From positions 1-14,314 of the forward strand of contig JAWXCN010000157.1 of the NCBI GenBank assembly GCA_034408725.1: a DNA stretch of 14,314 nt. Reading direction: 5' to 3'. Below, in pieces: positions 1 to 13,497 of this stretch (position 1 is its first letter; every line of letters starts with the position of its first letter). The stretch comes from Candidatus Hydrogenedentota bacterium. Lineage in GTDB: Bacteria; Hydrogenedentota; Hydrogenedentia; Hydrogenedentales; SLHB01. The translations under genes and the position numbers were made by a program. The notes beneath the pieces were generated by a model. It had not been told where the DNA came from. It saw nothing but the letters and a program-made list of their open reading frames with translations, and made no database searches.

Positions 1-2940
1 ACCCGCCTTGAGTTTCGCGACGCTGCTTTCCGGGTCGCCCTGATTTCCAAAAACGATTGCGCCGCCGGGGCACGCTTGCTGGCATGCGGTCGTGATTTCA
101 CCGTCGCGCACGCTACGGCCTTCCTTTTTGGCGTCAATGCGCGCCAGATTGATGCGCTGCACGCAATACGTACACTTTTCCATGACGCCACGCGTGCGCA
201 CCGTCACGTCCGGGTTATACATCATTTGCAAGGACGGCGAGGTCTGGTCGGAATAATGAAAGAAGTTAAATCGCCGCACCTTGTACGGACAGTTGTTCGA
301 ACAGTACCGCGTGCCGACGCAGCGGTTGTACACCATGTCGTTCAGGCCTTCTTTGCTGTGGACCGTCGCGGCAACGGGGCATACAACTTCGCAGGGCGCG
401 TTTTCGCACTGCATGCACGGCACGGGCTGGTGGACGACTTCGACTTCGCCGGCCGGATCGCCTTTGTAATAACGGTCTACGCGAATCCAGTGCATTTCGC
501 GCGACGCGATTACCTGCTCCTTGCCAACAACCGGAATATTGTTTTCCGCCTGGCACGCGATGATGCAAACGCCGCATCCCGTGCATTTGCTCAGGTCAAT
601 GGTCATTCCCCATGCGTAGCCTTCGTAGGTCGATGGTGGGTACAGGGACTCGGCGTTGCTTGGCTCGTGGCCGGGATGCACGTGTTTCGCGAAATCAGGA
701 TGCTCGTGGTACTCCGCGAGCGTACCAGTTCGCGCGAGCGGCCGGTGTTCTTCGGTCAAAGTCTGGTGCAGTTCCGTGCGCGCGAACTGCGGGCCGCCTT
801 CAATTCGTTTCAGCACCGCCCCCGGCGCAAACCAGGGCGCCGCGGACGTCCTCACGGTATAGGCGTTGTACCCCGTATTGTTGCCGACGTGTCCCGCGCG
901 GGTCCGGCCATATCCAAGGTGCAACGTTACGACATGATCGGGATGTCCGGGCTGTATCCATGCCTGGCCGCGAACAGTGCGTTCTCCGACGGTGACATCA
1001 ACATAATCGAAATTCGATATGCCATGCTCTTCGGCGGTGTGGAAGGAAACCAGGACCGCGTTGTCCCACGTAATGCGCGTGAGCGGCTTCGGCAACTCTT
1101 GTAGCCAGCCGCTATTGGCCCAACGTCCATCGCCGATGGTCGGGTCCGCCTGGAAAGAGACTTCAAGTGCGGACTGTTGCACCGGTTCCTGGGCCCTGGC
1201 TGTAACGCCAGCGCGTACCCGCACCGATTTCACGGGGCTGCCGGTGCCATCGACAATACCCTTGGCCAGTGACTCGCGCCAGAATATTTCAAACGATTCA
1301 GGACGTTGGGTTTGCCAGTATTGACGGACGATGTCGTAGCTCGTGCCGCCTTTTCCAAATAGCGCCGCCAACAACTCGTGGGCCGTTTTACCGCTGTACA
1401 AAGGCGCGATCATCGGTTGAATGAACGTTACCGTCCCATCGTATGCACGGCAGTCGCTCCAGGATTCGAGGTAATGCGCTTCCGGGATGTGCCAGTGGCA
1501 CAAATCGGACGTCTCGTCCTGGTACACGCCCATGTGGATGCGATGATTGACTTTTTGCAGCGCGGCGGCGAAATTCAAATCCGCGGGCGATTCGTAGACC
1601 GGGTTCACGCCTATCATGAAAAGGGTATCGACATTGCCGGCTTCCATGTCGCGGGCCAGTGTCCGCAACGATTCGGTCTGGTCGACAGGTTCGGCTTCAA
1701 TGGAATCCGTGTAAAGCACCGTTGTGCCGGCGTTTCCAAGTGCGTCGTTCATCGCATGGACAATTGCATGGACGATGGGGGGCTGGTTGTCACCCGCGAT
1801 AATGATAGATTTGCCGGCATGCGCTTGCAGGTCCCCGGCGACTGCGTCAACGAATTTTGCGTGCGCTGCATCAGGCTCGGCGCCGGGTGCTTCGAGACCC
1901 AGCTTGCGCGCGATCGCGCGGGCAAAAGTCTCGATCTGGGACGGGCGCGCGTGAAGGTGGTTATCGGCAGTGGCGCCGGTTAATGTCGGCGAGCTCTCGA
2001 TTACATATAGCCGGTTCATCACCGCGCCATCCTCGGCGCTCCGGCGGCTTGTGAAATCGCGAGAATAGCGCACGCGCGTCGGCCCGTCACTCAGGAAATT
2101 AGAATCCAGGGATAACACGACGTCAGCGACATCAAACTGATGGACCGTGTTGACCGCGTCGTCGAACGCGATACGCGCGCCAGCCTTTGCATTGTCGCGG
2201 TTCACTGGTTCGTACTGGTGCCAGCGAGCGCCTGGGACCGTCGTCAGAAATTCGTTCAACTGCGCCGTGAGCGTCGGAGAAGTAACCGTGCCGGTCAAAA
2301 GGCGGATGCCAGAATCGGGTTTGTCCCGAAGACCCTGACTCAACTTAGCGCCCGAAGTCGGGTCTTTCTCGCCGTTGATCTGCACATCCAGGGCCGCGAC
2401 AAAAGTTTCCCAAGTCGTGATCGTTCCCCGGCGCAGGGCGACGGTCGAACGATCCGGGTCGTAGAGCGACAGTATCGATGCTTGCGCAAAAATATCCGTG
2501 GAACCGAGGCTCGCGGGATGATGCGGATTGCCCTCGACCTTGGTCGGGCGGCCCATGTGGTTCTCGGCAAGCAAACCCATCGCGTACCCGCTGAGGGGCA
2601 TTGCCGTTGCAAACATCAGGGCATTGCCCGGCGTCAATTCTGCCGGGGGCTTGACGTACGGCACAATATGTTCGTCAGGCTGGCGCGAACACGCCGCCGT
2701 GACACCCGCGAGCGCGAGCGACGCGCCCATGCACTTCAGGAAACTGCGGCGTTCCACCGCTGTTGCAAGCACGGATGCGCCACGCGGAAATTCCCGGTGA
2801 AGCATGTCCATGAACCCGTCCGTCTCGGCGAGTTCTTCCAGGCTGCGCCAATATTCCGGCCCGCGCTTCGACGCCAGTTTTTGGCGGACTGCACCCAGAT
2901 CGATTGGCTCTGCCACTGATATAGACTCTTCATGTGTCAC
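1..2940 (-). CDS. actB: Alternative complex III subunit ActB (molybdopterin-oxidoreductase-like domain fused to a 4Fe-4S domain), 3' end runs off the window
   Basis: Both ends translated by hand in one frame. GTG start at 2940 (alternative GTG 2916) gives MTHEESISVAEPIDLGAVRQKLASKRGPEYWRSLEELAETDGFMDMLHREFP...ERRSFLKCMGASLALAGVTAACSRQPDEHIVPYV...GRPTKVEGNPHHPASLG. The C-terminal part carries Fe-S motifs WGMTIDLSKCTGCGVCIIACQAENNIP, CMQCENAPCEVVCP, RCVGTRYCSNNCPYKVRRFN, GVMEKCTYCVQRI and TACQQACP. It lies directly downstream of actA. The middle was not translated codon by codon. Confidence 0.93.
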   Translation of the reverse strand, partial: MTHEESISVAEPIDLGAVRQKLASKRGPEYWRSLEELAETDGFMDMLHREFPRGASVLATAVERRSFLKCMGASLALAGVTAACSRQPDEHIVPYVKPPAELTPGNALMFATAMPLSGYAMGLLAENHMGRPTKVEGNPHHPASLGSTDIFAQASILSLYDPDRSTVALRRGTITTWETFVAALDVQINGEKDPTSGAKLSQGLRDKPDSGIRLLTGTVTSPTLTAQLNEFLTTVPGARWHQYEPVNRDNAKAGARIAFDDAVNTVHQFDVADVVLSLDSNFLSDGPTRVRYSRDFTSRRSAEDGAVMNRLYVIESSPTLTGATADNHLHARPSQIETFARAIARKLGLEAPGAEPDAAHAKFVDAVAGDLQAHAGKSIIIAGDNQPPIVHAIVHAMNDALGNAGTTVLYTDSIEAEPVDQTESLRTLARDMEAGNVDTLFMIGVNPVYESPADLNFAAALQKVNHRIHMGVYQDETSDLCHWHIPEAHYLESWSDCRAYDGTVTFIQPMIAPLYSGKTAHELLAALFGKGGTSYDIVRQYWQTQRPESFEIFWRESLAKGIVDGTGSPVKSVRVRAGVTARAQEPVQQSALEVSFQADPTIGDGRWANSGWLQELPKPLTRITWDNAVLVSFHTAEEHGISNFDYVDVTVGERTVRGQAWIQPGHPDHVVTLHLGYGRTRAGHVGNNTGYNAYTVRTSAAPWFAPGAVLKRIEGGPQFARTELHQTLTEEHRPLARTGTLAEYHEHPDFAKHVHPGHEPSNAESLYPPSTYEGYAWGMTIDLSKCTGCGVCIIACQAENNIPVVGKEQVIASREMHWIRVDRYYKGDPAGEVEVVHQPVPCMQCENAPCEVVCPVAATVHSKEGLNDMVYNRCVGTRYCSNNCPYKVRRFNFFHYSDQTSPSLQMMYNPDVTVRTRGVMEKCTYCVQRINLARIDAKKEGRSVRDGEITTACQQACPGGAIVFGNQGDPESSVAKLKAG

Positions 2941-2964
2941 GGTTCAGGCTACCCGTTTCTTAGT

Positions 2965-3657
2965 TTATCGATGGCAAATGGAGCAATTGGTAAGCTGCTC
3001 CTTGTTGATTCCCAATTGCTGGACCAATTGCGGTCCAATCTCAGTTTGCTTCAATGGTTCCGGCTCGCCGGTCACCGGGTTTTTGTTTGTGCCGGGGGTC
3101 CACTGCATATCAAAAACCTTATCCGCTGGCCGGATGAATTTTTCAGGGTGTTCGTGGCAATTGAGGCACCACTTCATGTGAAGGGTTTCGGCTTTCATCA
3201 TCAACGGCATATCGTCCACCTGACCATGGCAGGTTACGCAACCGATGCCGCGGTTGACGTGGATACTGTGGTTGAAATAAACGAAATCAGGAAGATCGTT
3301 GATGCGGTTCCATTCGAGCGGCTGGCCGGTGTCCCAGCTTTCGCGGACAGGAGCCAGCATGGGCGCCTCGGTCCATACCTGGGAATGACAGGTCATGCAC
3401 GTTTCGGTTGGAGGAATCCCAGCGAATGTTCCCGTTTCCACCGTCGTATGGCAATACCGGCAATCAATGCCCATTGCTTGAACGTGGTGCCGGTGGCTGA
3501 AAGGAACTGGTTGCTCTTTTGCGACGTTTACGTTCGTGCCAAACGGAGACCAATACATGTGCATGGCCCCCGCTCCACCTGCTAGGACGAAGAGCAATCC
3601 CCCGACAATCGTGACGCGGGCGACGGTATTAAAACTGGACGGAAAAAGTTGAGCCAC
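2965..3657 (-). CDS. actA: Alternative complex III pentaheme cytochrome c subunit ActA (cytochrome c3 family)
   Basis: 230 aa with an N-terminal MAQLF motif, one hydrophobic helix and QPVPFSHRHH. Five CxxCH motifs (CRYCH, CMTCH, CVTCH, CLNCH, CSICH) and LPDFVYFNHSIH. SD-like GAGGT just upstream of the GTG start. Adjacent to actB. Confidence 0.93.
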   Translation of the reverse strand: MAQLFPSSFNTVARVTIVGGLLFVLAGGAGAMHMYWSPFGTNVNVAKEQPVPFSHRHHVQAMGIDCRYCHTTVETGTFAGIPPTETCMTCHSQVWTEAPMLAPVRESWDTGQPLEWNRINDLPDFVYFNHSIHVNRGIGCVTCHGQVDDMPLMMKAETLHMKWCLNCHEHPEKFIRPADKVFDMQWTPGTNKNPVTGEPEPLKQTEIGPQLVQQLGINKEQLTNCSICHR

Positions 3658-3997: not shown

Positions 3998-4305
3998 TTC
4001 ATAAGAATTGAAGCGCACATGGTCTTAATTTGAGATGAAATCCCTAACCGGAAACTCGCCCAAAGCGGCGCTTTTACAACAAAGACCGCCGAGCACAAGA
4101 CGGAGATAAGGCCCGAACGCGAAAGAATGACCCAAGTATAGGCGAACCATGATAAACGGCTGTAAACCGAGGAATGGAGCAGCCAAGCAAACTGTTGCCT
4201 ATATTAGGTTCACTAAACGTACAGTAAAGTGCCTCAATCATAGTCTTCAAATCCTGACTTCCCATGAGGTCCGTATCGAATATGGGCTTCAAGGGGAGGT
4301 AATTC

Positions 4306-7300
4306 ATGTCTGCGAGCGATTTCGATTCCTTTCCTTTCGGCGATGATGCGACTACGGACGATGTATTCACGGAGGTCCGGCACGAAGAGGCTTTGCTCAA
4401 AACGGGAGCCTTGCAAAACGCGATCTTCAACAGCGCCAACTTCTCGAGTATCGCCACTGACGAAAAAGGCGTGATTCAGTTGTTCAACGTTGGGGCGGAG
4501 CGTATGCTCGGGTATGCCGCCGCGGATGTGGTGAACAGGATCACCCCAGCCGACATTTCTGACCCGCGTGAAGTGATTTCCCGCGCCAAGGCGCTAAGCG
4601 TGGAACTCGCGACTCCGATTACACCGGGGTTCGAGGCATTGGTTTTCAAGGCCTCTCGCGGTATCGAGGACATTTATGAGCTGACTTACATTCGCAAAGA
4701 TGGCAGCCGCTTCCCGGCTGTCGTGTCCGTCACCGCGCTTCGCGACGCGCAAGACGCGATCATTGGCTACCTGTTGATCGGCACTGATAATACCGCGCGC
4801 AAACAGGCGGAAGAGGCACTGCTTGCGGCAGGCGCGTTGCAGAACGCGATTTTCAACAGCGCCAACTTCTCGAGTATCGCGACCGACGAAAAAGGCGTCA
4901 TACAGTTATTCAACGTTGGGGCGGAGCGTATGCTCGGATATGCCGCCGCCGACGTGGTCAATAAAATTACCCCCGCCGACATTTCTGACCCGCGTGAAGT
5001 GATTGCCCGCGCCAAGGCGCTAAGCGTGGAACTTGCCACTCCCATTACGCCGGGCTTCGAGGCCCTGGTGTTCAAGGCCTCACGCGGGATCGAGGATATC
5101 TACGAGCTGACCTACGTTCGCAAGGACGGCAGCCGCTTTCCGGCCGTCGTGTCGGTCACGGCGCTGCGCGACGATCAAGGCGGAATCATCGGGTACCTGT
5201 TGATAGGCACCGATAACTCCGCGCGCAAGGAGGCGGAAGAGGCCCTGCTCAAGGCGGGCGCCTTGCAGAGCGCCATTTTCAACAGCGCCAACTTCTCGAG
5301 CATCGCCACCGACGCGAAGGGCGTCATTCAGATATTCAACGTTGGCGCGGAACGCATGCTGGGCTACGAGGCCGCAGAGGTGATGAACAAAATCACCCCC
5401 GCCGACATATCCGATCCGGAGGAAGTTGTCGCGCGCGCAAAAGCGTTGAGCATCGAACTCGGGACTCCAATTACCCCGGGATTCGAGGCGCTGGTGTTCA
5501 AGGCCGCGCGCGGGATCGAGGACATCTATGAACTAACCTACTTCCGCAAGGATGGCAGCCGGTTCCCGGCGGTCGTGTCCGTCACGGCGTTGCGCGACGC
5601 GCAGGACGCCATCATCGGCTATCTGTTGATCGGCACCGACAACACGGCGCGCAAGCACGCGGAAGAGGCGCTGCTCAAGGCGGGGGCCCTGCAGAGCGCG
5701 ATTTTCAACAGCGAGAACTTCTCGAGCATCGCCACCGACGCGAAGGGCGTCATCCAGATATTCAATGTCGGCGCCGAGCGGATGCTGGGCTACACGGCCG
5801 CCGAAGTGATGAACAAGATTACGCCGGCCGACATATCCGATCCAGAGGAAGTGATTGCGCGGGCCAAGGCGCTGAGCGTCGAGCTTGGGACCCCGATTGC
5901 CCCGGGCTTCGAGGCGTTGGTATTCAAGGCCTCGCGCGGCATCGAGGACATCTACGAACTGACCTACATTCGTAAAGACGGCAGCCGCTTTCCGGCCGTC
6001 GTGTCGGTCACGGCGCTGCGCGACGCGCAGGACGCCATCATCGGCTATCTGCTGATCGGCACTGAGCTCAAGGCGGGGGCCCTGCAGAGCGCGATTTTCA
6101 ACAGCGCCAATTTCTCGAGTATCGCCACCGACGCGAAGGGCGTTATACAGATATTCAACGTCGGCGCCGAGCGGATGCTGGGCTACACGGCCGCCGAAGT
6201 GATGAACAAGATTACGCCGGCCGACATATCCGATCCAGAGGAAGTAATTGCGCGGGCCAGGGCGCTGAGCGTCGAGCTTGGGACCCCGATTACCCCGGGC
6301 TTCGAGGCGTTGGTATTCAAAGCCTCGCGCGGTATCGAGGACATTTACGAGCTGACCTACATCCGTAAGGACGGCAGTCGCTTTCCGGCCGTCGTGTCGG
6401 TTACGGCGCTGCGAGACGCTCAAGGCGGAATCATCGGATATCTGCTGATCGGCACCGATAACTCCGCGCGCAAAGAGGCGGAAGAGGCGCTGCTCAAGGC
6501 GGGGGCCCTGCAGAGCGCGATTTTCAACAGCGCCAACTTCTCGAGCATCGCCACCGACGCGAAGGGCGTCATCCAGATATTCAACGTCGGCGCCGAGCGG
6601 ATGCTGGGCTACACGGCCGCCGACGTGATGAACAAGATCACGCCGGCCGACATCTCCGATCCGGAGGAAGTAGTCGCGCGCGCCAAGGCGTTGAGCGTCG
6701 AGCTTTCGACGCCGATTACGCCAGGCTTCGAGGCGCTGGTGTTTAAGGCTTCGCGCGGGATCGAGGACATTTACGAGTTGACCTACATTCGAAAGGATGG
6801 AAGCCGCTTTCCGGCCATGGTGTCGGTTACGGCGCTGCGCGACGCTCAAGGCGAAATCATCGGCTACCTATTAATCGGCACCGATAACACGGCGCGCAAG
6901 GAGGTCGAAGCGGACCAGAAACAACTCGATCAGCGCCTGCGCGACCAGCAGTTCTACACACGCTCGCTCATCGAGTCGAACATCGACGCGCTGATGACGA
7001 CCGATCCGGCCGGCATCATCACCGACGTCAACAAGCAGATGGAAGCGCTCACCGGTTGCACGCGCGACGAGTTGATCGGCGCGCCGTTCAGGAGTTACTT
7101 CACCGATCCGGAGCGGGCCGAAGCGGCTATCAAGCTGGTGCTGAGCGAGAAGAAAGTCACTGACTACGAACTCACGGCGTGCGCCCGGGACGGCAAGAAA
7201 ACAGTGGTGTCCTACAACGCGACCACCTTCTACGACCGGGACCGGAAGTTGCAGGGCGTGTTCGCCTCCGCGCGCGACGTCACGGAGCGCAAACGCTTTG

Positions 7301-8505
7301 AGCAGGCGCTGCAGCAGACGAACGCCGAGCTCGAGAGCGCAACTTCCGTGGCGGAAAAGGCCAACCTCGCCAAATCGGAGTTCCTTTCCAGCATGAGCCA
7401 CGAGCTTCGCAGCCCGCTCAATGCCATCCTTGGCTTCGCGCAACTGATGGAGTCCGCCTCCCCAATGCCAACGGCCTCCCAGGCGGAAAGCATCGCCCAG
7501 ATACTGCAAGCGGGGTGGCATCTGCTTAAGCTCATAAATGAAATCCTCGATCTGGCGGTGATCGAGTCCGGAAAGGTTTCGCTATCGCCGGAATCGGTGT
7601 CATTGACCGAGGTGATGGCCGAATGCCAAGCCATGATGGAGCCGCAGGCGCAACAGCGTGGCATCTGCATGACCTTCCCCCGGTGCGACAGCCCCCTCTT
7701 TGTTAAAGCTGACCGCACCCGCCTGAAGCAGATTATCATCAACCTGCTTTCCAACGCGATCAAATACAACACGGAGCAGGGAAAAGTCGTCGTAATTTAC
7801 ACCACGAGCACTCCGGGACGCGTTCGTATTGGCGTCAGGGACACCGGTGTGGGACTATCTCCGGAAAAGCTGACGCAACTCTTCCAGCCGTTCAATCGAC
7901 TCGGACAAGAGGCGGGCGGCGTGGCGGGCACGGGCATCGGCCTGGTGGTGACGAAACGACTGGCCGAACTAATGGGGGGGATGCTCGGCGTAGAAAGCAC
8001 TGTGGGCGCGGGGAGCGTGTTCTGGTGCGAGCTGACCGCGAGCGCGGAACCGCAACTTGTGATCGAACCCAACGAGGCCCCCTTATTTGACGAACCACCA
8101 ATGCCGACGGGCGCGCGGGCGCGCACCCTGCTCTATGTCGAAGACAACCCGGCGAACATGAAGCTGGTGGAGCAACTCATCGCGCGGCGCCCGGACATAC
8201 GGTTGTTGACCGCGGTGGACGGAACCCTCGGCATAGAGATAGCGCGCACCACTCTGCCGACGGTGATCCTGATGGATATCAATCTGCCCGGCATCAGTGG
8301 AATCGAAGCCTTGAAAATTCTGCGCGAAGACCCGGCCACGGCCCACATCCCCGTTGTTGCCCTCAGCGCCAACGCAATGCCCCGCGACATCGAGACGGGC
8401 CTGGACGTTGGTTTCTTTCGCTATCTCACCAAACCAATCAAGGTCAATGAATTCATGGGCACGCTGAACGAAGCATTAGCATTCGCGGAAGAAACGGCCA
8501 CGTAG
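4306..8505 (+). CDS. Cytoplasmic hybrid sensor histidine kinase: 7 PAS domains + HisKA + HATPase_c + C-terminal receiver
   Basis: 1399 aa with a strong SD (GGGGAGGT) before the ATG. PAS/PAC motifs (FNVGAERMLGY, RKDGSRFP, RDVTERK). H-box MSHELRSPLNAILGF, N-box NLLSNAIKY, G1 DTGVG, F-box LFQPF, G2 GTGIGL. Receiver YVEDN...ILMDINLP...ALSA...TKP. No transmembrane stretch is evident. Confidence 0.95.
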   Translation: MSASDFDSFPFGDDATTDDVFTEVRHEEALLKTGALQNAIFNSANFSSIATDEKGVIQLFNVGAERMLGYAAADVVNRITPADISDPREVISRAKALSVELATPITPGFEALVFKASRGIEDIYELTYIRKDGSRFPAVVSVTALRDAQDAIIGYLLIGTDNTARKQAEEALLAAGALQNAIFNSANFSSIATDEKGVIQLFNVGAERMLGYAAADVVNKITPADISDPREVIARAKALSVELATPITPGFEALVFKASRGIEDIYELTYVRKDGSRFPAVVSVTALRDDQGGIIGYLLIGTDNSARKEAEEALLKAGALQSAIFNSANFSSIATDAKGVIQIFNVGAERMLGYEAAEVMNKITPADISDPEEVVARAKALSIELGTPITPGFEALVFKAARGIEDIYELTYFRKDGSRFPAVVSVTALRDAQDAIIGYLLIGTDNTARKHAEEALLKAGALQSAIFNSENFSSIATDAKGVIQIFNVGAERMLGYTAAEVMNKITPADISDPEEVIARAKALSVELGTPIAPGFEALVFKASRGIEDIYELTYIRKDGSRFPAVVSVTALRDAQDAIIGYLLIGTELKAGALQSAIFNSANFSSIATDAKGVIQIFNVGAERMLGYTAAEVMNKITPADISDPEEVIARARALSVELGTPITPGFEALVFKASRGIEDIYELTYIRKDGSRFPAVVSVTALRDAQGGIIGYLLIGTDNSARKEAEEALLKAGALQSAIFNSANFSSIATDAKGVIQIFNVGAERMLGYTAADVMNKITPADISDPEEVVARAKALSVELSTPITPGFEALVFKASRGIEDIYELTYIRKDGSRFPAMVSVTALRDAQGEIIGYLLIGTDNTARKEVEADQKQLDQRLRDQQFYTRSLIESNIDALMTTDPAGIITDVNKQMEALTGCTRDELIGAPFRSYFTDPERAEAAIKLVLSEKKVTDYELTACARDGKKTVVSYNATTFYDRDRKLQGVFASARDVTERKRFEQALQQTNAELESATSVAEKANLAKSEFLSSMSHELRSPLNAILGFAQLMESASPMPTASQAESIAQILQAGWHLLKLINEILDLAVIESGKVSLSPESVSLTEVMAECQAMMEPQAQQRGICMTFPRCDSPLFVKADRTRLKQIIINLLSNAIKYNTEQGKVVVIYTTSTPGRVRIGVRDTGVGLSPEKLTQLFQPFNRLGQEAGGVAGTGIGLVVTKRLAELMGGMLGVESTVGAGSVFWCELTASAEPQLVIEPNEAPLFDEPPMPTGARARTLLYVEDNPANMKLVEQLIARRPDIRLLTAVDGTLGIEIARTTLPTVILMDINLPGISGIEALKILREDPATAHIPVVALSANAMPRDIETGLDVGFFRYLTKPIKVNEFMGTLNEALAFAEETAT
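4405..6900 (+). repeat. Six tandem intragenic PAS repeats, 426-bp period (one 393-bp unit)
   Basis: The GALQ(N/S)AIFNS motif starts at 4405, 4831, 5257, 5683, 6076 and 6502 (spacings 426, 426, 426, 393, 426). Protein sequence is nearly identical while codons differ synonymously. Confidence 0.95.
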
Positions 8506-8557
8506 ATTTTCCCCTGTCAGGATTTTTCGCGTGAGGAACGTTGCCAGCTAATCCGGA

Positions 8558-8586
8558 TTGTTGCTATTCCTCAATGCCGTTAGAAT
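8558..8586 (+). promoter_or_regulatory. Possible internal promoter for the two response regulators
   Basis: TTGTTG, a 17-nt spacer, then TAGAAT in the 140-bp AT-rich gap after the kinase. The -35 match is weak. Confidence 0.25.
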
Positions 8587-8645
8587 AATATGGGACGAGA
8601 TTGCCGCAAAAATTCTATTCCACGCACCGAAAAGGGAACGATAGC

Positions 8646-9830
8646 ATGGTGAGTGCTACCGATGTTCTCAACGCCAAAATCCTGGTCGTTGACGATCAGG
8701 AAGTCAACGTCCTATTGCTTGAACGCGCACTGGACGGCGCCGGCTATGTTTCCGTAGCCTCCACGATGAATCCCCGCGAAGTCTGTGAGCTCCACCGAAA
8801 AAACCGCTACGACTTAATCATTCTTGATTTGCAGATGCCGGGGATGGACGGATTTCAGGTAATGGACGGCCTCAAAGAGATTGAAGCAGGCGGCTACCTT
8901 CCCGTTCTCGTGGTCACGGCGCAGCCGGATCACAAACTACGCGCGTTGCAAGCCGGTGCGAAGGATTTTGTCAGCAAGCCGTTCGATCTGACCGAGGTCC
9001 AGGCGCGCGTCTACAACATGCTTGAAGTGCGGCTGTTGCACAAGGAGTTGCACTGCCACAACGACCTGCTAGAAAAACGTGTGCGGGATAGGACCGCCGA
9101 ACTCCTGGAAAACTATCAGGAAACCATTTTTGCGCTGGTCCGTGCCGCGGAATACAAAGATAAAGACACCGGCACTCACGTACGGCGCATCGGCTTTTAT
9201 TGCGCGAGGTTGTCCGAGAAGCTGGGCCAGGATCGACACTTCCGCGACACGATTTTTTTCGCCAGCCCGATGCACGACGTAGGCAAGATAGGCATTCCTG
9301 ATCATATCCTGCTCAAGCCCGCCAGCCTTACGCAGGACGAGTGGGAGGTAATGAAGGAGCACGCACTCCTGGGCGCAAATATCCTCGGCAGCAGCAGGTC
9401 CCCGTATCTCAGCATGGGCGCCGAAATCGCCTTGGGGCACCACGAAAGTTGGGAGGGTGGGGGATATCCGAACGGACTCAAAGGAGAGTCCGTTCCACTC
9501 TCGGCGCGCATTATGAAAATCTGCGACACCTACGATGCACTTTGCAGCGAGCGGCCGTACAAGTCTGCTTTCGACCATTCGAAGGCGGTGGACATCATCA
9601 CCCGAGGCGATGGCCGCGTCCAACCGGAACATTTCGATCCCGATATTCTTGAAGCCTTCAAGCAGGACCACGAGTCGTTCCGCGAAATCTTCGAGACCTA
9701 CACGGCGCCGGCATCTTCTTCGCCCCAGCAATACGATCGCCATCGCGAGGGGGGGCGAAATAATGCCGGAAGTATTGCTTCGCGCGAACCGTCCAAAGGC
9801 GATGCGGACGAAAGAATGAGGAAGTATTAG
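8646..9830 (+). CDS. Response regulator with HD-GYP phosphodiesterase output (RpfG-like)
   Basis: Receiver ILVVDDQE...ILDLQMP...VVTA...SKPF and a coiled-coil linker LEKRVRDRTAEL. HD-GYP motifs AEYKDKDTGTHVRR, MHDVGKIGIPD, HHESWEGGGYP and DTYDALCSERPYK. ATG 8646 is preferred over TTG 8601 because it follows AAAGGGA and aligns with the start of the paralogous regulator. Confidence 0.92.
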   Translation: MVSATDVLNAKILVVDDQEVNVLLLERALDGAGYVSVASTMNPREVCELHRKNRYDLIILDLQMPGMDGFQVMDGLKEIEAGGYLPVLVVTAQPDHKLRALQAGAKDFVSKPFDLTEVQARVYNMLEVRLLHKELHCHNDLLEKRVRDRTAELLENYQETIFALVRAAEYKDKDTGTHVRRIGFYCARLSEKLGQDRHFRDTIFFASPMHDVGKIGIPDHILLKPASLTQDEWEVMKEHALLGANILGSSRSPYLSMGAEIALGHHESWEGGGYPNGLKGESVPLSARIMKICDTYDALCSERPYKSAFDHSKAVDIITRGDGRVQPEHFDPDILEAFKQDHESFREIFETYTAPASSSPQQYDRHREGGRNNAGSIASREPSKGDADERMRKY

Positions 9831-9831
9831 C

Positions 9832-10932
9832 GTGGTGAATGCGGCCGACATTCTCGACGCAAAGATTCTGATCGTCGACGATCAAGAAGCCAACGTCCTC
9901 CTGCTCGAACGTACGCTGCGCGGCGCCGGTTATACTTCCATCGCTTCCACGATGGCTTCGTGCGAAGTCTGCGACCTCCACCGAAAAAACAGCTACGACC
10001 TGATTCTGCTGGATCTGCAGATGCCCGGCATGGATGGGTTCGAGGTGATGGAAGGCCTCAAAGAGATTGAGGCGGGCGGGTACCTTCCCGTTCTCGTGGT
10101 CACGGCCCAGCCGGGTCACAAGCTGCGCGCGCTGCAATCCGGTGCGAAGGATTTCGTGAGCAAGCCGTTCGATCTGGTCGAGGTGCTGGCGCGCGTTCAC
10201 AATATGCTGGAAGTTCGTTTGTTGCATCTGAAAACCAAGTTGCTCTACGCCCGGGTCGTGGCCGAGCAAAAGGTGTCGGAACGGCTGCTGCTCAACGTAT
10301 TGCCTCATTCCATTGCCGAACGCTTGAAGGGGCGTCCCGAAGTCGTGGCGGACAGCTTCGCGGAAGTCATCGCCGACAGTTTTCCGGAGGTGACCGTGTT
10401 GTTCGCGGATATCGTAGGATTTACAAAGTTTTCCACCGGCGTGAGCCCCGAGCAGCTCGTGGTCCTCCTCAACGAAATATTTAACGATTTCGACACCATC
10501 GCGGACAACCGTGGCCTCGAGAAGATCAAGAGTATAGGCGATGCGTATATGGCTGCCGCCGGACTGCCTGTACCCGTGGATGATCACGCGGCATTGGCGG
10601 CGCACATGGCGCTGGACATGCTTGACGCGTTGGCCCGGTTTAATGAGCGTAGCGGCTACAACTTGCAAATCCGCATCGGCATCAATAGCGGCCCAGTGGT
10701 TGCAGGTGTCATTGGAAAGCGAAAGTTTATTTACGACATGTGGGGAGCCGCCGTGAACATCGCCAGCCGTATGGAATCACACGGCATTGCCGGTCGCGTG
10801 CAAATCACCGGGGCCACCCGGTCGCGCCTCGGCGAACCCTTCCTTTTCGAAGAGCGCGGCGCCATCGACGTCAAAGACATCGGCGAACTTCGAACCTACT
10901 TCCTGACCGGTAGAACCACAATGAAACGTTAA
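9832..10932 (+). CDS. Response regulator with class III adenylate/guanylate cyclase output (adenylate-type specificity residues)
   Basis: A receiver domain followed by the SERLLLNVLPHSIAERLK helix and cyclase motifs VTVLFADIVGFT, EKIKSIGDAYM, RIGINSGPVVAGVIG and YDMWGAAVNIASRMES. Both metal-binding Asp residues, the K/D purine-specifying pair and the N/R transition-state pair are present. It starts 1 bp after the HD-GYP stop, with SD GAGGA. Confidence 0.93.
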   Translation: MVNAADILDAKILIVDDQEANVLLLERTLRGAGYTSIASTMASCEVCDLHRKNSYDLILLDLQMPGMDGFEVMEGLKEIEAGGYLPVLVVTAQPGHKLRALQSGAKDFVSKPFDLVEVLARVHNMLEVRLLHLKTKLLYARVVAEQKVSERLLLNVLPHSIAERLKGRPEVVADSFAEVIADSFPEVTVLFADIVGFTKFSTGVSPEQLVVLLNEIFNDFDTIADNRGLEKIKSIGDAYMAAAGLPVPVDDHAALAAHMALDMLDALARFNERSGYNLQIRIGINSGPVVAGVIGKRKFIYDMWGAAVNIASRMESHGIAGRVQITGATRSRLGEPFLFEERGAIDVKDIGELRTYFLTGRTTMKR

Positions 10933-11282: not shown

Positions 11283-12773
11283 TTATTTACGGGGATTTCC
11301 GTGAATTTTCTCGGCAATCTCCTTCTTGGCCAAAAAATAACCGGATTCATCGAAGGAAGATAAAAACGATTGGATATAGAGTTCTGCAGTCGGCGTATTT
11401 TTGAGGGATTTGACACTATCTACGGCCTCGATAAGCGTTTTATTTATCGCTACCTGTTCGGGAGTGCGCGATAATCGCTCGGGCCCCAAAATGGCAGAGG
11501 CGGCAACCAGTCCCGATTCACGAAATGCCGCGTCTTTATGCGCAATTAAACTGAGCACAAATTGCCGTATAGGAACGACAGCAGCCGAAGTTAGGGATTG
11601 TTCACTTTCAAGCTTCGCGAGTCCAAGTGATATCCCGAAGCCAATCTGCAATATGTTTACTGATTTGTCGGTACTGTAAAAGGCGGCGGCAGCTTCCGCA
11701 GTGCTCATCCCAGCAAGCATTATTGCAACACAATACGCTGTATACATTTGCTCCTGCGGATAAAGGTTAATTCTTTCAGATGCAGCCTTGGCGATTTCGT
11801 GCGTTACGAAGGAAAAGCGTTTTGTAAATAGGAATGCAAGAATCTGTATATCAACGTCCTTATTTCTCCGGTCGTCTTGCAGATAATCCTCCAACGCCGC
11901 CATAGCGATTCCCGGCTGTTGATTGTCAATTGCACGCAATCCTTGAAAACACGTCATTTGAACGGCTGGACCTTCGACAAGTAGTCCGGCGCGTAAGAGA
12001 TCTAGTGTCTTTGGAATACTCCCCAATTCTGTTAAAGCAAGAGCCCTATAAGCATTCAACTTCAAATTGGATTCGAGATTGTCTGGCAATTTCATAAGAC
12101 ATTTCTCGATTTCATCCACAAATACCGAGGCACCCATTTTGTCGGTGGTGATGCGAGCGACACGGGAGTCGAAAATCTCACCGCCAAGAACGTCAATTAC
12201 CCAAGTTTCCACCCCAGGCAATGCCAAGGTAGAACTGGTGTTCGAGAACGAATTGATCATACGTTCGATTTCCACATGGGCAGTATCGGAAAAGGCGTCG
12301 GAGTCGAGCGCTGCTTCCAGCGCATTTACAATTTCCGCGTGCATACGTTTAGGAGAATTATCGAGAGAAATCGCGCAAGCATACCGGATTGCAGGGGATT
12401 CATCGGTTAGTCCTTTAAGTATCGCTCGCGTTCCTGGTTGCGTGCGGATTATGGATTCTTGACCAAGCAAGAAATACGCCATCATGCGTGGTCCCGGCTC
12501 ATCGAATGCGGGATCTGATTGCAACCAGCCTTCAATTCTCTTGACTAACTCGGGCACGTCTTGATAAAGAATTTCTGGCTTTGGATAAACAGTGGTATCT
12601 GTCTTAATGAAACCCTGTCTTAGCTGTTCATAAATTGGTTCAATGTCCGCAGCGCTTTCCTTGTTTGGCGGTTCGGCCTGAGCAGAAAAGATTTGCATGA
12701 ATGTCAGGCTCAGTATTGTCCCGAAACAATGTAAGTTTCTTCGAAACTTTAATTTCATGTGCAGTCTCCGCAT
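11283..12773 (-). CDS. Hypothetical exported alpha-helical (HEAT/ARM-like) protein, ~496 aa
   Basis: Long ORF. AGGAGG precedes ATG 12773 (alternative ATG 12758). Signal-peptide-like N-terminus MRRLHMKLKFRRNLHCFGTILSLTFMQIFSAQA-EPP. HEAT-like segments LKGLTDESPAIRYACAISL, LRAGLLVEGPAVQMTCFQGL and LIAHKDAAFRESGLVAA. Visibly AT-richer than flanking genes. Confidence 0.75.
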   Translation of the reverse strand: MRRLHMKLKFRRNLHCFGTILSLTFMQIFSAQAEPPNKESAADIEPIYEQLRQGFIKTDTTVYPKPEILYQDVPELVKRIEGWLQSDPAFDEPGPRMMAYFLLGQESIIRTQPGTRAILKGLTDESPAIRYACAISLDNSPKRMHAEIVNALEAALDSDAFSDTAHVEIERMINSFSNTSSTLALPGVETWVIDVLGGEIFDSRVARITTDKMGASVFVDEIEKCLMKLPDNLESNLKLNAYRALALTELGSIPKTLDLLRAGLLVEGPAVQMTCFQGLRAIDNQQPGIAMAALEDYLQDDRRNKDVDIQILAFLFTKRFSFVTHEIAKAASERINLYPQEQMYTAYCVAIMLAGMSTAEAAAAFYSTDKSVNILQIGFGISLGLAKLESEQSLTSAAVVPIRQFVLSLIAHKDAAFRESGLVAASAILGPERLSRTPEQVAINKTLIEAVDSVKSLKNTPTAELYIQSFLSSFDESGYFLAKKEIAEKIHGNPRK

Positions 12774-12815
12774 GTGACGCCTCCTGCGTGTGAAGATACC
12801 CCCATTTGCTTGTTT

Positions 12816-12837
12816 ATAGGGGACAGCCACCTATTTA
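12816..12837. repeat. Left 22-bp inverted repeat (REP-like hairpin)
   Basis: ATAGGGGACAGCCACCTATTTA is the exact reverse complement of 13534-13555. It is internally palindromic (ATAGG...CCTAT) and contains the transposase stop codon. Confidence 0.9.
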
Positions 12838-13497
12838 CTCCGATTCTTGGTTGTCGGTTTTAATTTTCTGGGGCGGCCTAGTTTGTGTTCGAGTTTGGTG
12901 AGGAACGAGTCGCTTGCGAGCGGACGGCCCGTGTGGGTGTTGAGGCAGAGCGCCGCGACGCTCTCTTTGTTGTCGGGTTGGATAAGCATCTCTTTCCAGT
13001 TTATAGCACCCGCTAACTCTTGCCAAGCATGAAAATCGAGGAGGCGCGCTACGTCTGTTCCACCGGTGTGCGCTGCCGCGCTGGACCAGCGGTAGGTCCA
13101 CGGGCCGCGGGTCATTTTCGCGCGGACGGGATTGCGTTCGACGTAGCGCATAGCGGCCATGGTGTAGGCGCCGTCCATGGGACACGAATGGAACCGGCCC
13201 TGCCACAGGTGGCCGCTACGGCCGTGGAGGCGGTTGATGAGTTGGGTGTAGAGGAAGTGTGTGCGTCCAATGGCGAGGTTGAGCGAGTCCGCATGTGCGA
13301 GCGCTGCGATCATGTGGATGTGGTTGGTCATCAGGCAATATACCCCAGCACCCGAACGCGGTGTTTCAGGCATTGCTCGCGCAACAAGTCGAGATAGGCT
13401 GCCCGGTAGCCATCGACAAAGAAAACGTCCTGCCGGTTATTGCCGCGCTGGGGTTGTGGGGCAGGCCGGGTATGACGATTCGCGTGTGTCGTGGCAT
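12831..13497 (-). pseudogene. REP-associated tyrosine transposase (RAYT, HUH/Y1 family), two frameshifts
   Basis: Reconstructed across three segments: MPRHTRIVIPGLPH / QRGNNRQDVFFVDGYRAAYLDLLREQCLKHRVRVLGY / CLMTNHIHMIA...GRSGHLWQGRFHS...RYVERNPVRAKM...YRWSSAAAH. The HUH motif (HIH) and catalytic Tyr (RYVERNP) are present. Frameshifts near 13452 and 13340 (GGGTATATTGCCTG, extra AT). Confidence 0.9.

Follow-up and report, generated by a model that had tools for sequence, protein, structure and literature searches.

Among bacterial messengers, cyclic di-guanosine monophosphate (c-di-GMP) and cyclic adenosine monophosphate (cAMP) are the main two that govern lifestyle. To our knowledge, cross-talk between them proceeds via transcription or by one messenger binding the enzymes of the other. 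The locus analyzed here could connect both messengers at the level of a single two-component kinase. It consists of three consecutive genes of Candidatus Hydrogenedentota bacterium (assembly GCA_034408725.1), which encode a soluble hybrid histidine kinase with a PAS array and two response regulators, one carrying an HD-GYP domain and the other a class III nucleotide cyclase. The receiver domains of the two regulators are near-identical and are referred to below as twin receivers. The genes are located on contig JAWXCN010000157.1, whose 14,314 bases are the entire stretch analyzed (the window), within a 5.17-Mb metagenome-assembled genome that is 92% complete. We favor the reading that one shared kinase serves two active second-messenger enzymes, with a probability of roughly 0.6.

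Related signalling systems

In the diffusible signal factor (DSF) signalling pathway of Xanthomonas campestris, the hybrid sensor kinase RpfC is encoded beside RpfG, a receiver-HD-GYP protein whose phosphorylation turns on c-di-GMP hydrolysis. The window resembles RpfC-RpfG in that a hybrid kinase adjoins a receiver-HD-GYP gene, and the twin receivers match, among others, the RpfC receiver (PDB 3M6M). However, RpfC is membrane-bound and has an HPt domain of its own, no PAS array, one regulator and no cyclase, whereas the kinase of the window is soluble, lacks an HPt domain and is followed by two enzyme regulators. In Caulobacter, PleC/DivJ and DivK/PleD represent one kinase with two regulators, one of which is a receiver-GGDEF cyclase. 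PleD is the best PDB receiver match of both twins (E 3e-27 to 4e-28), but there the outputs comprise a diguanylate cyclase and a single-domain receiver, with receivers that are not twins and without any cAMP branch.

Cyanobacterial CyaC is a receiver-containing class III cyclase. Dictyostelium ACR is likewise described as a cyclase containing a receiver domain in passages of PMC3009899. In both, as in the window, a class III cyclase is under receiver control, but CyaC and ACR hold kinase, receivers and cyclase in one polypeptide, whereas the receiver-cyclase of the window is a separate regulator behind the kinase and beside a second regulator. RocR of Pseudomonas aeruginosa is a receiver-c-di-GMP phosphodiesterase, and the Roc kinases are periplasmic sensors with HPt domains. 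The Roc branches differ from those of the window in leading to a DNA-binding regulator and an EAL enzyme, with no cAMP output. According to PMC12051241, Roc as a whole is a branched two-component network whose kinases engage several regulators.

For Bacillus cereus, passages of PMC4574943 report that the C-terminal receiver of the hybrid kinase RsbK is regulatory and that its partner RsbY is a receiver-PP2C protein. The PP2C branch of the family described below (13 of 124 receivers) has the RsbK-RsbY layout, but RsbK has other sensor domains and the outputs of the window are nucleotide enzymes; the comparison is one of layout. Finally, passages of PMC1592074 describe a signalling helix that joins an upstream receiver to a histidine kinase, HD-GYP, diguanylate cyclase or PAS/GAF domain, and list cyclic nucleotide monophosphate (cNMP) cyclases, PP2C and NtrC-like ATPases as domains downstream of this helix. 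These outputs overlap with those found here; the layout of receiver, signalling helix and catalytic domain is a general rule in those passages, whereas here a single receiver lineage, tied to one kinase lineage, carries all these outputs plus MgtE and DUF1003.

Full-text literature searches, judged by titles and the starts of abstracts and with subscription journals outside their scope, returned no paper on a kinase that is paired with both a phosphodiesterase and a cyclase regulator, and no description of the family of PAS kinases and receiver adaptors to which the genes belong. No such system is mentioned in the passages found of a review on c-di-GMP and cAMP (PMC11139211). The individual parts of the trio are ordinary. 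What is new is the kinase/HD-GYP/cyclase combination, its recurrence, and the picture of a family in which one ultra-conserved PAS kinase is combined with a receiver adaptor that carries at least eleven outputs.

The hybrid kinase and its two regulators

The features of the trio, all on the plus strand, are:

4306 to 8505, plus strand: soluble hybrid histidine kinase, 1399 amino acids (open reading frame, translation, Pfam, hydropathy)
4396 to 6909, plus strand: six-unit tandem PAS array (TRF period 426/393, tblastn unit map)
4396 to 4821, 4822 to 5247 and 5248 to 5673, plus strand: PAS units 1 to 3 (tblastn)
5674 to 6066, plus strand: PAS unit 4, 131 amino acids or 393 nucleotides, without the 11-residue linker (tblastn)
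6067 to 6492 and 6493 to 6909, plus strand: PAS units 5 and 6 (tblastn)
6916 to 7305, plus strand: divergent seventh PAS (best Pfam PAS stretch, residues 886-994)
7369 to 8037, plus strand: kinase core, HisKA and HATPase_c, H-box S-H-E-L-R-S-P-L (Pfam, 61.6 and 88.5 bits)
8131 to 8460, plus strand: the kinase's own receiver, residues 1276-1385 (Pfam, 72.4 bits)
8506 to 8645, plus strand: 140-nucleotide spacer between kinase and regulators, with a weak promoter-like site at 8561-8589
8646 to 9830, plus strand: receiver-HD-GYP regulator, 394 amino acids (Pfam Response_reg and HD_5/HD, PDB 4MCW match)
8679 to 9011, plus strand: its receiver, followed by a helical linker (Pfam)
9138 to 9617, plus strand: its HD-GYP domain (Pfam)
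9708 to 9827, plus strand: its non-conserved tail of 40 amino acids, an intergenic spacer in the related genome G116 (comparison with relatives)
9832 to 10932, plus strand: receiver-class III (IIIa-like) adenylate-type cyclase, 366 amino acids, GTG start (Pfam Response_reg and Guanylate_cyc)
9865 to 10197, plus strand: its receiver (Pfam)
10372 to 10908, plus strand: its catalytic domain (Pfam)

Pfam and hydropathy bear out a preliminary description of the locus as a soluble hybrid kinase with seven PAS domains that is followed by two regulators. The kinase gene is preceded at 6 nucleotides by a strong Shine-Dalgarno sequence, GGGGAGG. Downstream of the seven PAS stretches, the protein contains HisKA (PF00512, residues 1022-1089; 61.6 bits against a cut-off of 26.9) with the H-box histidine, HATPase_c (PF02518, residues 1136-1244; 88.5 bits) and a fused receiver (PF00072, residues 1276-1385; 72.4 bits) in which the acidic pair, the acceptor Asp, the Ser and the Lys are all present. 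An H-box HisKA domain, HATPase_c and a receiver with acceptor Asp in one chain define a hybrid kinase of the HisKA type. In the NCBIfam scan only the generic PAS S-box domain passed a family cut-off, and the kinase remained below the NahK/ErcS hybrid kinase model NF041832 (151.4 bits against 400). All three proteins of the trio are predicted to be soluble, since none has a 19-residue stretch above a Kyte-Doolittle value of 1.45.

The first regulator had been listed with a TTG start at 8601. This start is probably wrong and the true one is probably ATG 8646, because the N-terminus of its relatives (M-V-S-A-x-D-I-L-N) corresponds to the residues encoded from there; AAGGGA lies 8 nucleotides upstream of this ATG. 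The protein matches the receiver family PF00072 with 94 bits and PF13487 with 106.6 bits, and residues 152-341 align to the c-di-GMP phosphodiesterase PDB 4MCW (E 7.3e-47). The motifs HDVGK, HHESWEGGGYP and DTYDAL are present, and HD, HH, GYP and DxxDAL...RPYK are all in place relative to 4MCW. The order of a receiver with acceptor Asp and then the HD, HH and GYP motifs is that of RpfG-type proteins; with 145.5 bits against a cut-off of 400, the protein is of related architecture to the NosR family (model NF053512) without being a member.

That the HD-GYP protein does not act on c-di-GMP, but is a 3',3'-cGAMP (cyclic GMP-AMP) hydrolase or a non-catalytic nucleotide sensor or partner protein, is unlikely. 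The protein also matches the 3',3'-cGAMP-specific HD-GYP protein PDB 5Z7C significantly (E 2.1e-28), the D that relatives have in HHE-x-W-D-G is replaced by E in the window, and the copy in G116 has lost the GYP tyrosine; yet the active c-di-GMP phosphodiesterase 4MCW is matched far better than any other structure, with all motif residues aligned, and the genome contains seven GGDEF matches.

Between the two regulator genes, the gap of 1 nucleotide claimed in the preliminary description is real, with the TAG stop of the HD-GYP gene at 9828-9830 and the GTG start of the cyclase gene at 9832, which is preceded at 8 nucleotides by GAGGAAG. The HD-GYP protein is 394 residues long, against 354-362 in most relatives, and its 40 C-terminal codons run through a region that is a 113-nucleotide spacer in G116 (L174:3422-3534). 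As the tail covers this spacer, the tight junction is probably secondary and due to a lost or displaced stop codon.

The cyclase domain of the second regulator (PF00211, 205.9 bits) has PDB matches to AC5, AC8 and mycobacterial Cya, and is closest to mammalian membrane cyclases and to the Cya/Rv1625c type. Its motifs are FADIVGFT, KIKSIGD and YDMWGAAVNIASR. Aligned with the C1 and C2 domains of AC5, one chain holds both metal Asp residues, the K/D pair, the Asn and the Arg, as in the homodimeric type. We assume the usual roles for these residues, with metal binding by the Asp residues, transition-state functions of Asn and Arg, and the Lys/Asp pair as a marker of ATP use. The enzyme assignments of the preliminary description, HD-GYP and a cyclase with K/D pair, are thus upheld by motifs that are intact relative to 4MCW and AC5 C1/C2.

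Receiver and catalytic domain of the cyclase are joined by a helical linker of 19 residues and a putative transducer element. The stretch L-L-L-N-V-L-P-x-x-I-A, which we take to be the cyclase transducer element, aligns with the equivalent stretch ahead of the C1 and C2 domains of AC5 and AC8. Measured from R-L-L-H to L-L-x-N-x-L-P, the linker comprises 19 residues in 14 proteins (including those of the window and G116), 26 residues in one and 47 residues in six; seven proteins fell outside these patterns and one spurious match was dropped. The length classes are spaced by 7 and 28 residues, both multiples of 7. Passages of PMC5995499 describe the transducer element, with a different motif for the cyclase studied there, and report for engineered phytochrome-cyclases that coupling via coiled coil and transducer element depends on the helical register: constructs seven residues apart behave alike, while a one-residue shift can invert the response. 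Linker steps of seven fit such a coiled-coil transmission, in which the register would matter for cyclase control, and also agree with the order of receiver, signalling helix and catalytic domain described in PMC1592074. A 29-residue deletion in the linker of the window was ruled out, as 19 residues is the commonest class (14 of 21 proteins), and a 24-nucleotide tandem repeat at 10335-10388 is not a new insertion, as relatives have equal peptide length and motif.

Twin receivers

The receivers of the two regulators share 81% identity over 135 residues and 74% over 151 residues, in agreement with their earlier designation as near-identical. Residues D16, D17, D61, T91 and K111 are invariant in eight receiver copies and kept in both twins. 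The next-best receiver of the genome is only 36% identical to them, and the receiver fused to the kinase shares 24% identity with the twins. At the DNA level the twins are 80% identical, with 67% identity at third positions and no identical tract, which rules out a recent duplication or gene conversion. The HD-GYP receiver of the window is closer in DNA to the cyclase receiver of genome G006 (84% identity) than to the HD-GYP receiver of genome G025 (73%), and the HD-GYP label requires six changes for six rows on a receiver tree that is poorly resolved (121 rows, 135 columns, three of 117 branches starred). On both counts, receiver sequence appears to track lineage and not the attached output.

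Conserved synteny of kinase and receiver

Homologous loci came from four sources: 40 relatives of the window's genome; a scan in which each species was represented by a single genome and eight aligned receivers served as query (22 loci at 65-79% identity, below which identity falls abruptly, the next matches having 50% or less); a metagenome scan with an alignment of four receiver-cyclases as query (78 loci); and 135 genomes of the window's own phylum, which added seven new loci to the previous 105, giving 112. Synteny was scored when a homologous kinase receiver of at least 60% identity was found on the same strand within 450 nucleotides upstream, and a locus was assessable when at least 450 nucleotides of sequence preceded its first receiver of the twin type.

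The homologous kinase receiver lies directly upstream of the twin-type receiver in 82 of the 85 assessable loci (of 105), and five of six assessable further loci from the own phylum (of seven) agree. Among the remaining loci, L110 misses the threshold only through a 4-nucleotide gene overlap, while L017 and L027 are true exceptions in the available DNA. This conserved synteny, which the preliminary description had named as a test, supports the view that the kinase and the receiver type form a dedicated pair. A single kinase for both receivers, as proposed in the preliminary description, is in line with this pattern and with the occurrence of the same trio in G116.

The conserved adjacency also bears on the possibility that the three genes are neighbors without a common pathway, with other kinases serving the regulators, or the kinase signalling via its own receiver and a distant HPt protein, and adjacency arising as a by-product of frequent recombination at conserved receiver sequence. 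Free shuffling of at least 11 output types on one receiver lineage, an IS200-like transposase fragment 1.9 kb downstream and the Hpt domains of some kinase homologues could all be accommodated by such a scenario. It is nevertheless very improbable given adjacency in 82 of 85 loci from at least five phyla by record title, twin receivers that have no close paralogue elsewhere in the genome, and the lack of a stand-alone Hpt protein by Pfam.

A modular family across phyla

The architecture is not singular; the trio is one combination within a large modular family that crosses phyla. By record titles, the genome loci belong to Betaproteobacteria, Gammaproteobacteria, Desulfuromonadales, Acidobacteriota, Verrucomicrobiota and an actinobacterial metagenome-assembled genome. 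In Acidobacteriota, matches were found in 26 of 401 genomes; five candidates per genome were scored, so that tandem regulators are not judgeable in this survey. Protein searches returned at least 8000 candidates of the kinase family at both E 1e-50 and E 1e-100, and the homologues are named only "PAS domain S-box protein" in the source databases.

Family receivers are 65-86% identical and constitute one narrow lineage tied to one kinase lineage. Together with a helix that extends alpha-5 to N-M-L-E-V-R-L-L-H, this receiver is fused to at least 11 outputs. Output types were assigned by tblastn to representatives that were checked with Pfam. The 124 receivers of the 105 loci carry a small PAS domain (35), a cyclase (24, a proportion inflated by the seeding of the metagenome scan with receiver-cyclases), GGDEF (13), a PP2C phosphatase (13, to which L137, scored as "other", adds one), HD-GYP (7), a sigma-54 ATPase (5), an MgtE transporter domain (5), further kinase cores (5), DUF1003 (1) or a HisKA_3 kinase (1). 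One is joined to a domain of the same type as the receiver in the kinase (L125), one belongs to a 274-residue protein without assigned type (L030), five have no output (one of them, L105, owing to a frame break) and seven are cut by contig ends.

Two or three tandem regulators are present in 20 of 112 loci (17 of 105 and three of seven), which makes branching a regular property of the family. Among the combinations are GGDEF with PAS (six loci), GGDEF with sigma-54 ATPase, GGDEF with cyclase (G111, G039), MgtE with cyclase, cyclase with PP2C, and GGDEF with HD-GYP (G109, and L016, in which the HD domain is cut). In G109 (locus L175; C719, 1812-5013, minus strand), the genes behind a single kinase encode a receiver-GGDEF protein and a receiver-HD-GYP protein with both motif sets intact, so that a c-di-GMP maker and a c-di-GMP breaker sit on twin receivers.

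Several members of the family have unusual fusions. The receiver is joined to MgtE in L097:4616-5749, L118:386-1519, L119:8403-9452, L120:3327-4376 and L123:122-1255, and to DUF1003 in L098:1342-2322; in these proteins a two-component receiver may directly gate a membrane transport domain. In the metagenome contig L121 (1246-2491), the receiver type of the kinase itself is repeated three times in tandem, after the kinase core and ahead of the gene for the receiver-HD-GYP protein.

Co-occurrence with Crp/Fnr-type genes, which the preliminary description had raised, holds for the kinase family, nearly always in its receiver-PAS branch, but scarcely for its cyclase branch. Such genes (cNMP_binding and HTH_Crp_2) are found at 26 of 105 loci, often two or three per locus, and flank the kinase and the receiver-PAS gene, mostly right behind the latter (L020, L023, L024, L028, L030, L032 and 20 more). 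In contrast, only two of 24 cyclase loci (L097, L107) have a Crp/Fnr gene, and the window has none.

Recurrence of the HD-GYP and cyclase pair

The pair of HD-GYP and cyclase regulators occurs in two of 112 loci, the window and G116. G116 represents another genus of the same family, and its trio comprises, in the same order, an 845-residue kinase with two PAS units, a 354-residue receiver-HD-GYP protein and a 359-residue receiver-cyclase. The flanks of its trio differ from those of the window.

In an eight-sequence tree, the sole well-supported branch separates the HD-GYP domain of one trio from that of the other, while the cyclase tree leaves the relation of the two trios undecided. Inheritance of the two trios as one unit was ruled out for the HD-GYP domain by the approximately unbiased (AU) test, which gave p 0.0005 for the two domains as sisters, the topology having been chosen for testing after a quick tree had been seen. 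Because this sisterhood is rejected, the pair was probably assembled twice, or one partner was replaced.

Proposed mechanism and alternative models

The three genes would constitute a branched two-component pathway, in which the PAS array of the soluble kinase would respond to a cytoplasmic cue. After autophosphorylation at the H-box histidine, the kinase would hand the phosphoryl group straight to D61, the acceptor Asp in each of two paralogous receivers, with no intervening HPt step. Both regulators are expected to be dimers, in which phosphorylation of D61 would alter the packing of the alpha-5 helices and hence the activity of the attached enzyme, the signal travelling in each receiver through the continuous helix that extends alpha-5. 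One helix would lead to the HD-GYP phosphodiesterase, which most likely acts on c-di-GMP, and the other, via the putative transducer element, to the class III cyclase, which has the ATP-type K/D pair and would make cAMP as a homodimer. In this way a single input could control the levels of both nucleotide messengers. Competition for the phosphoryl group or gating of the kinase is the most likely role of the C-terminal receiver of the kinase. Its retention in nearly all loci and the lack of a stand-alone Hpt protein in the genome by Pfam fit such a sink or gating role, as reported for RsbK in PMC4574943. We infer the phosphorylation partners, the substrates and the role of the kinase receiver from sequence features.

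Several observations weigh against a shared kinase with two active enzymes. The module is patchy, with 12 carriers among 135 genomes of the phylum and none among four of the same genus, and the locus sample is biased, as the metagenome scan was seeded with receiver-cyclases and many contigs are short. Among the best 120 kinase homologues, four have a fused Hpt domain (P0137, P0154, P0183 and P0210; 1465-1902 residues), so that part of the kinase family may use a phosphorelay, and a relay from the kinase's receiver via an Hpt domain is possible in principle. In G116 the GYP motif has degenerated to G-G-D-S-P, and the phosphodiesterase role may not be conserved there. The two HD-GYP domains are not sisters, and with so many circulating outputs recurrence alone is no proof of selection for the pair, which may have recurred through free output shuffling. 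Furthermore, two of five alpha-1 receiver positions, which we take to be kinase-specificity positions, differ between the twins (V/A and A/T). Finally, a GGDEF and an HD-GYP enzyme on one kinase, as in G109, would be futile under equal sign, and identical receivers therefore need not give outputs of equal sign.

This last point leads to the sign of control. The simultaneous lowering of c-di-GMP and raising of cAMP suggested in the preliminary description is one of two sign models, the other being reciprocal control. In a reciprocal or sequential switch, to which we assign a rather low probability, phosphorylation by the shared kinase would activate one enzyme and inhibit the other; alternatively, phosphotransfer and dephosphorylation kinetics would differ, and one regulator or the kinase's receiver would be a phosphate sink that sets threshold and timing. 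The G109 arrangement is sensible only with opposite signs or different kinetics, the twins differ at 19% of positions, including two in alpha-1, and the kinase's receiver is retained in 82 of 85 loci. One-residue changes in a coiled-coil linker can invert cyclase regulation, according to passages of PMC5995499, but the cyclase linker of the window belongs to the commonest length class (19 residues, 14 of 21), with no hint of an odd register, and the sign of control is not readable from sequence.

A broader interpretation, which we put forward only tentatively, regards the window as an instance of a so far undescribed, horizontally spread "universal adaptor" cassette, in which a near-invariant PAS sensor in one to about eight copies and a kinase are combined with a repeatedly re-fused receiver-helix. 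Its outputs would include adenylate cyclase, HD-GYP, GGDEF, PP2C, sigma-54 ATPase, PAS, kinases, MgtE and DUF1003. If this holds, the HD-GYP and cyclase pair was assembled twice independently. Selection would then seem to favor a coupling of c-di-GMP and cAMP, probably in a reciprocal manner, under one very widespread intracellular cue.

Should the trio work as a shared kinase with two active enzymes, it would offer a compact soluble three-protein system for studying phosphoryl partitioning between two enzyme regulators, and a model for near-identical receivers that drive different catalytic domains via a helix. The family as a whole represents a natural series of output swaps on one receiver and of PAS copy numbers on one kinase.

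The PAS sensor

The PAS units of the window share 88-94% identity in protein and 79-89% in DNA, but only 53-77% at third codon positions; for units of other phyla the values are 73-92% in protein and 42-58% at third positions. Over 41 copies (window 4396-6909; units of L012-L037 and L096-L180), 51 of 142 columns are invariant. With high protein identity and third positions near saturation, the repeats are old and under unusually strong constraint for a PAS domain. The low third-position identity rules out a recent expansion or an assembly echo, and conservation in the face of saturated synonymous sites implies an important cue or partner. The divergent seventh PAS shares 78-93% identity with the equivalent domain of relatives.

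An AlphaFold model of the unit (pLDDT 80.5) has a PAS fold with an additional helix after F-alpha. The nearest solved folds in Foldseek, with alignment by VIA-align, are the flavin PAS domains of NifL, MmoS and LOV proteins, whose Z scores of 8.5-8.8 are equalled by other PAS domains. Cys, His and Trp are missing from the unit, which thus lacks the Cys that forms the LOV adduct. Two PAS units gave no match in a PDB sequence search at E up to 0.01, and an ESM Atlas search of the unit returned generic PAS clusters only.

Complete arrays in the loci have one unit (29 loci), two (11), three (4), four (1) or six (the window). Among the matches listed, kinase homologues of about 980 to 1700 residues fall into length classes that are spaced by about 142 residues, and homologues of 1399-1417 residues occur elsewhere. 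No listed metagenome contig spans the PAS array, and the count of six units rests on the assembly. In microbial-mat metagenomes, hundreds of short contig pieces match the array region (4241-7132) at 95% identity or more, and the summed word depth on the array is hundreds to thousands, compared with about 8 on unique parts; this depth is made up of numerous short pieces with further matches elsewhere and is uninformative on copy number. Many members of the mat communities seem to carry locally near-identical PAS sequence.

Genomic context

Four microbial-mat metagenomes each contain 57% or more of the words sampled from the stretch, and Logan contigs from them bridge both the junction of the kinase 3' end with the HD-GYP gene and the HD-GYP/cyclase junction without mismatch. 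The metagenome with the fullest coverage may be the sample from which the genome was assembled. RNA datasets are absent among the listed holders of the stretch. A scan for promoter-like sites gave four (3.0 +/- 2.0 in shuffled sequences, hence no excess) and one for terminator-like sites gave six (9.1 +/- 4.0), which does not decide the transcription units either way.

As already noted in the preliminary description, the cluster has no HPt domain or DNA-binding regulator, and neither domain was found in the 11 flanking open reading frames of the window. Across the 92%-complete genome, Pfam detected no stand-alone Hpt protein, its two Hpt domains being located inside open reading frames of 1461 and 712 residues on other contigs. 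Genome-wide Pfam matches comprise seven GGDEF, six HD_5, three class III cyclase and four cNMP-binding domains, the latter all on contigs other than that of the window. These matches indicate that the rest of both the c-di-GMP and the cAMP network is present in the genome.

The flanks of the trio contain:

1 to 3657, minus strand: multihaem cytochrome (QrcA/c7-like) and a 980-residue protein with QrcB-like and QrcC-like parts, divergent from the kinase
11283 to 12830: HEAT-repeat protein
12831 to 13373, minus strand: IS200-like transposase fragment in a 180-residue open reading frame (C-terminal part of the Y1 family, E 2.4e-5)
flank of the trio: sulfatase gene (domain search)

The 980-residue protein has a twin-arginine translocation (TAT)-type signal and molybdopterin-like and iron-sulfur features, and the genes of this flank resemble the menaquinone-reductase subunits QrcA, QrcB and QrcC. 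We presume that they also resemble ActA and ActB of alternative complex III. The trio of G116 is without Qrc-like neighbors. The HEAT-repeat protein was ruled out as a conserved partner, as it has no similarity to the HEAT neighbor in G025 and joined no neighbor cluster. The transposase fragment, 1.9 kb downstream of the trio, is located beside a drop in G+C content (0.48 at 11500-13000). Together with the four module-free genomes of the same genus, the fragment and the G+C drop would fit a recent gain of the module.

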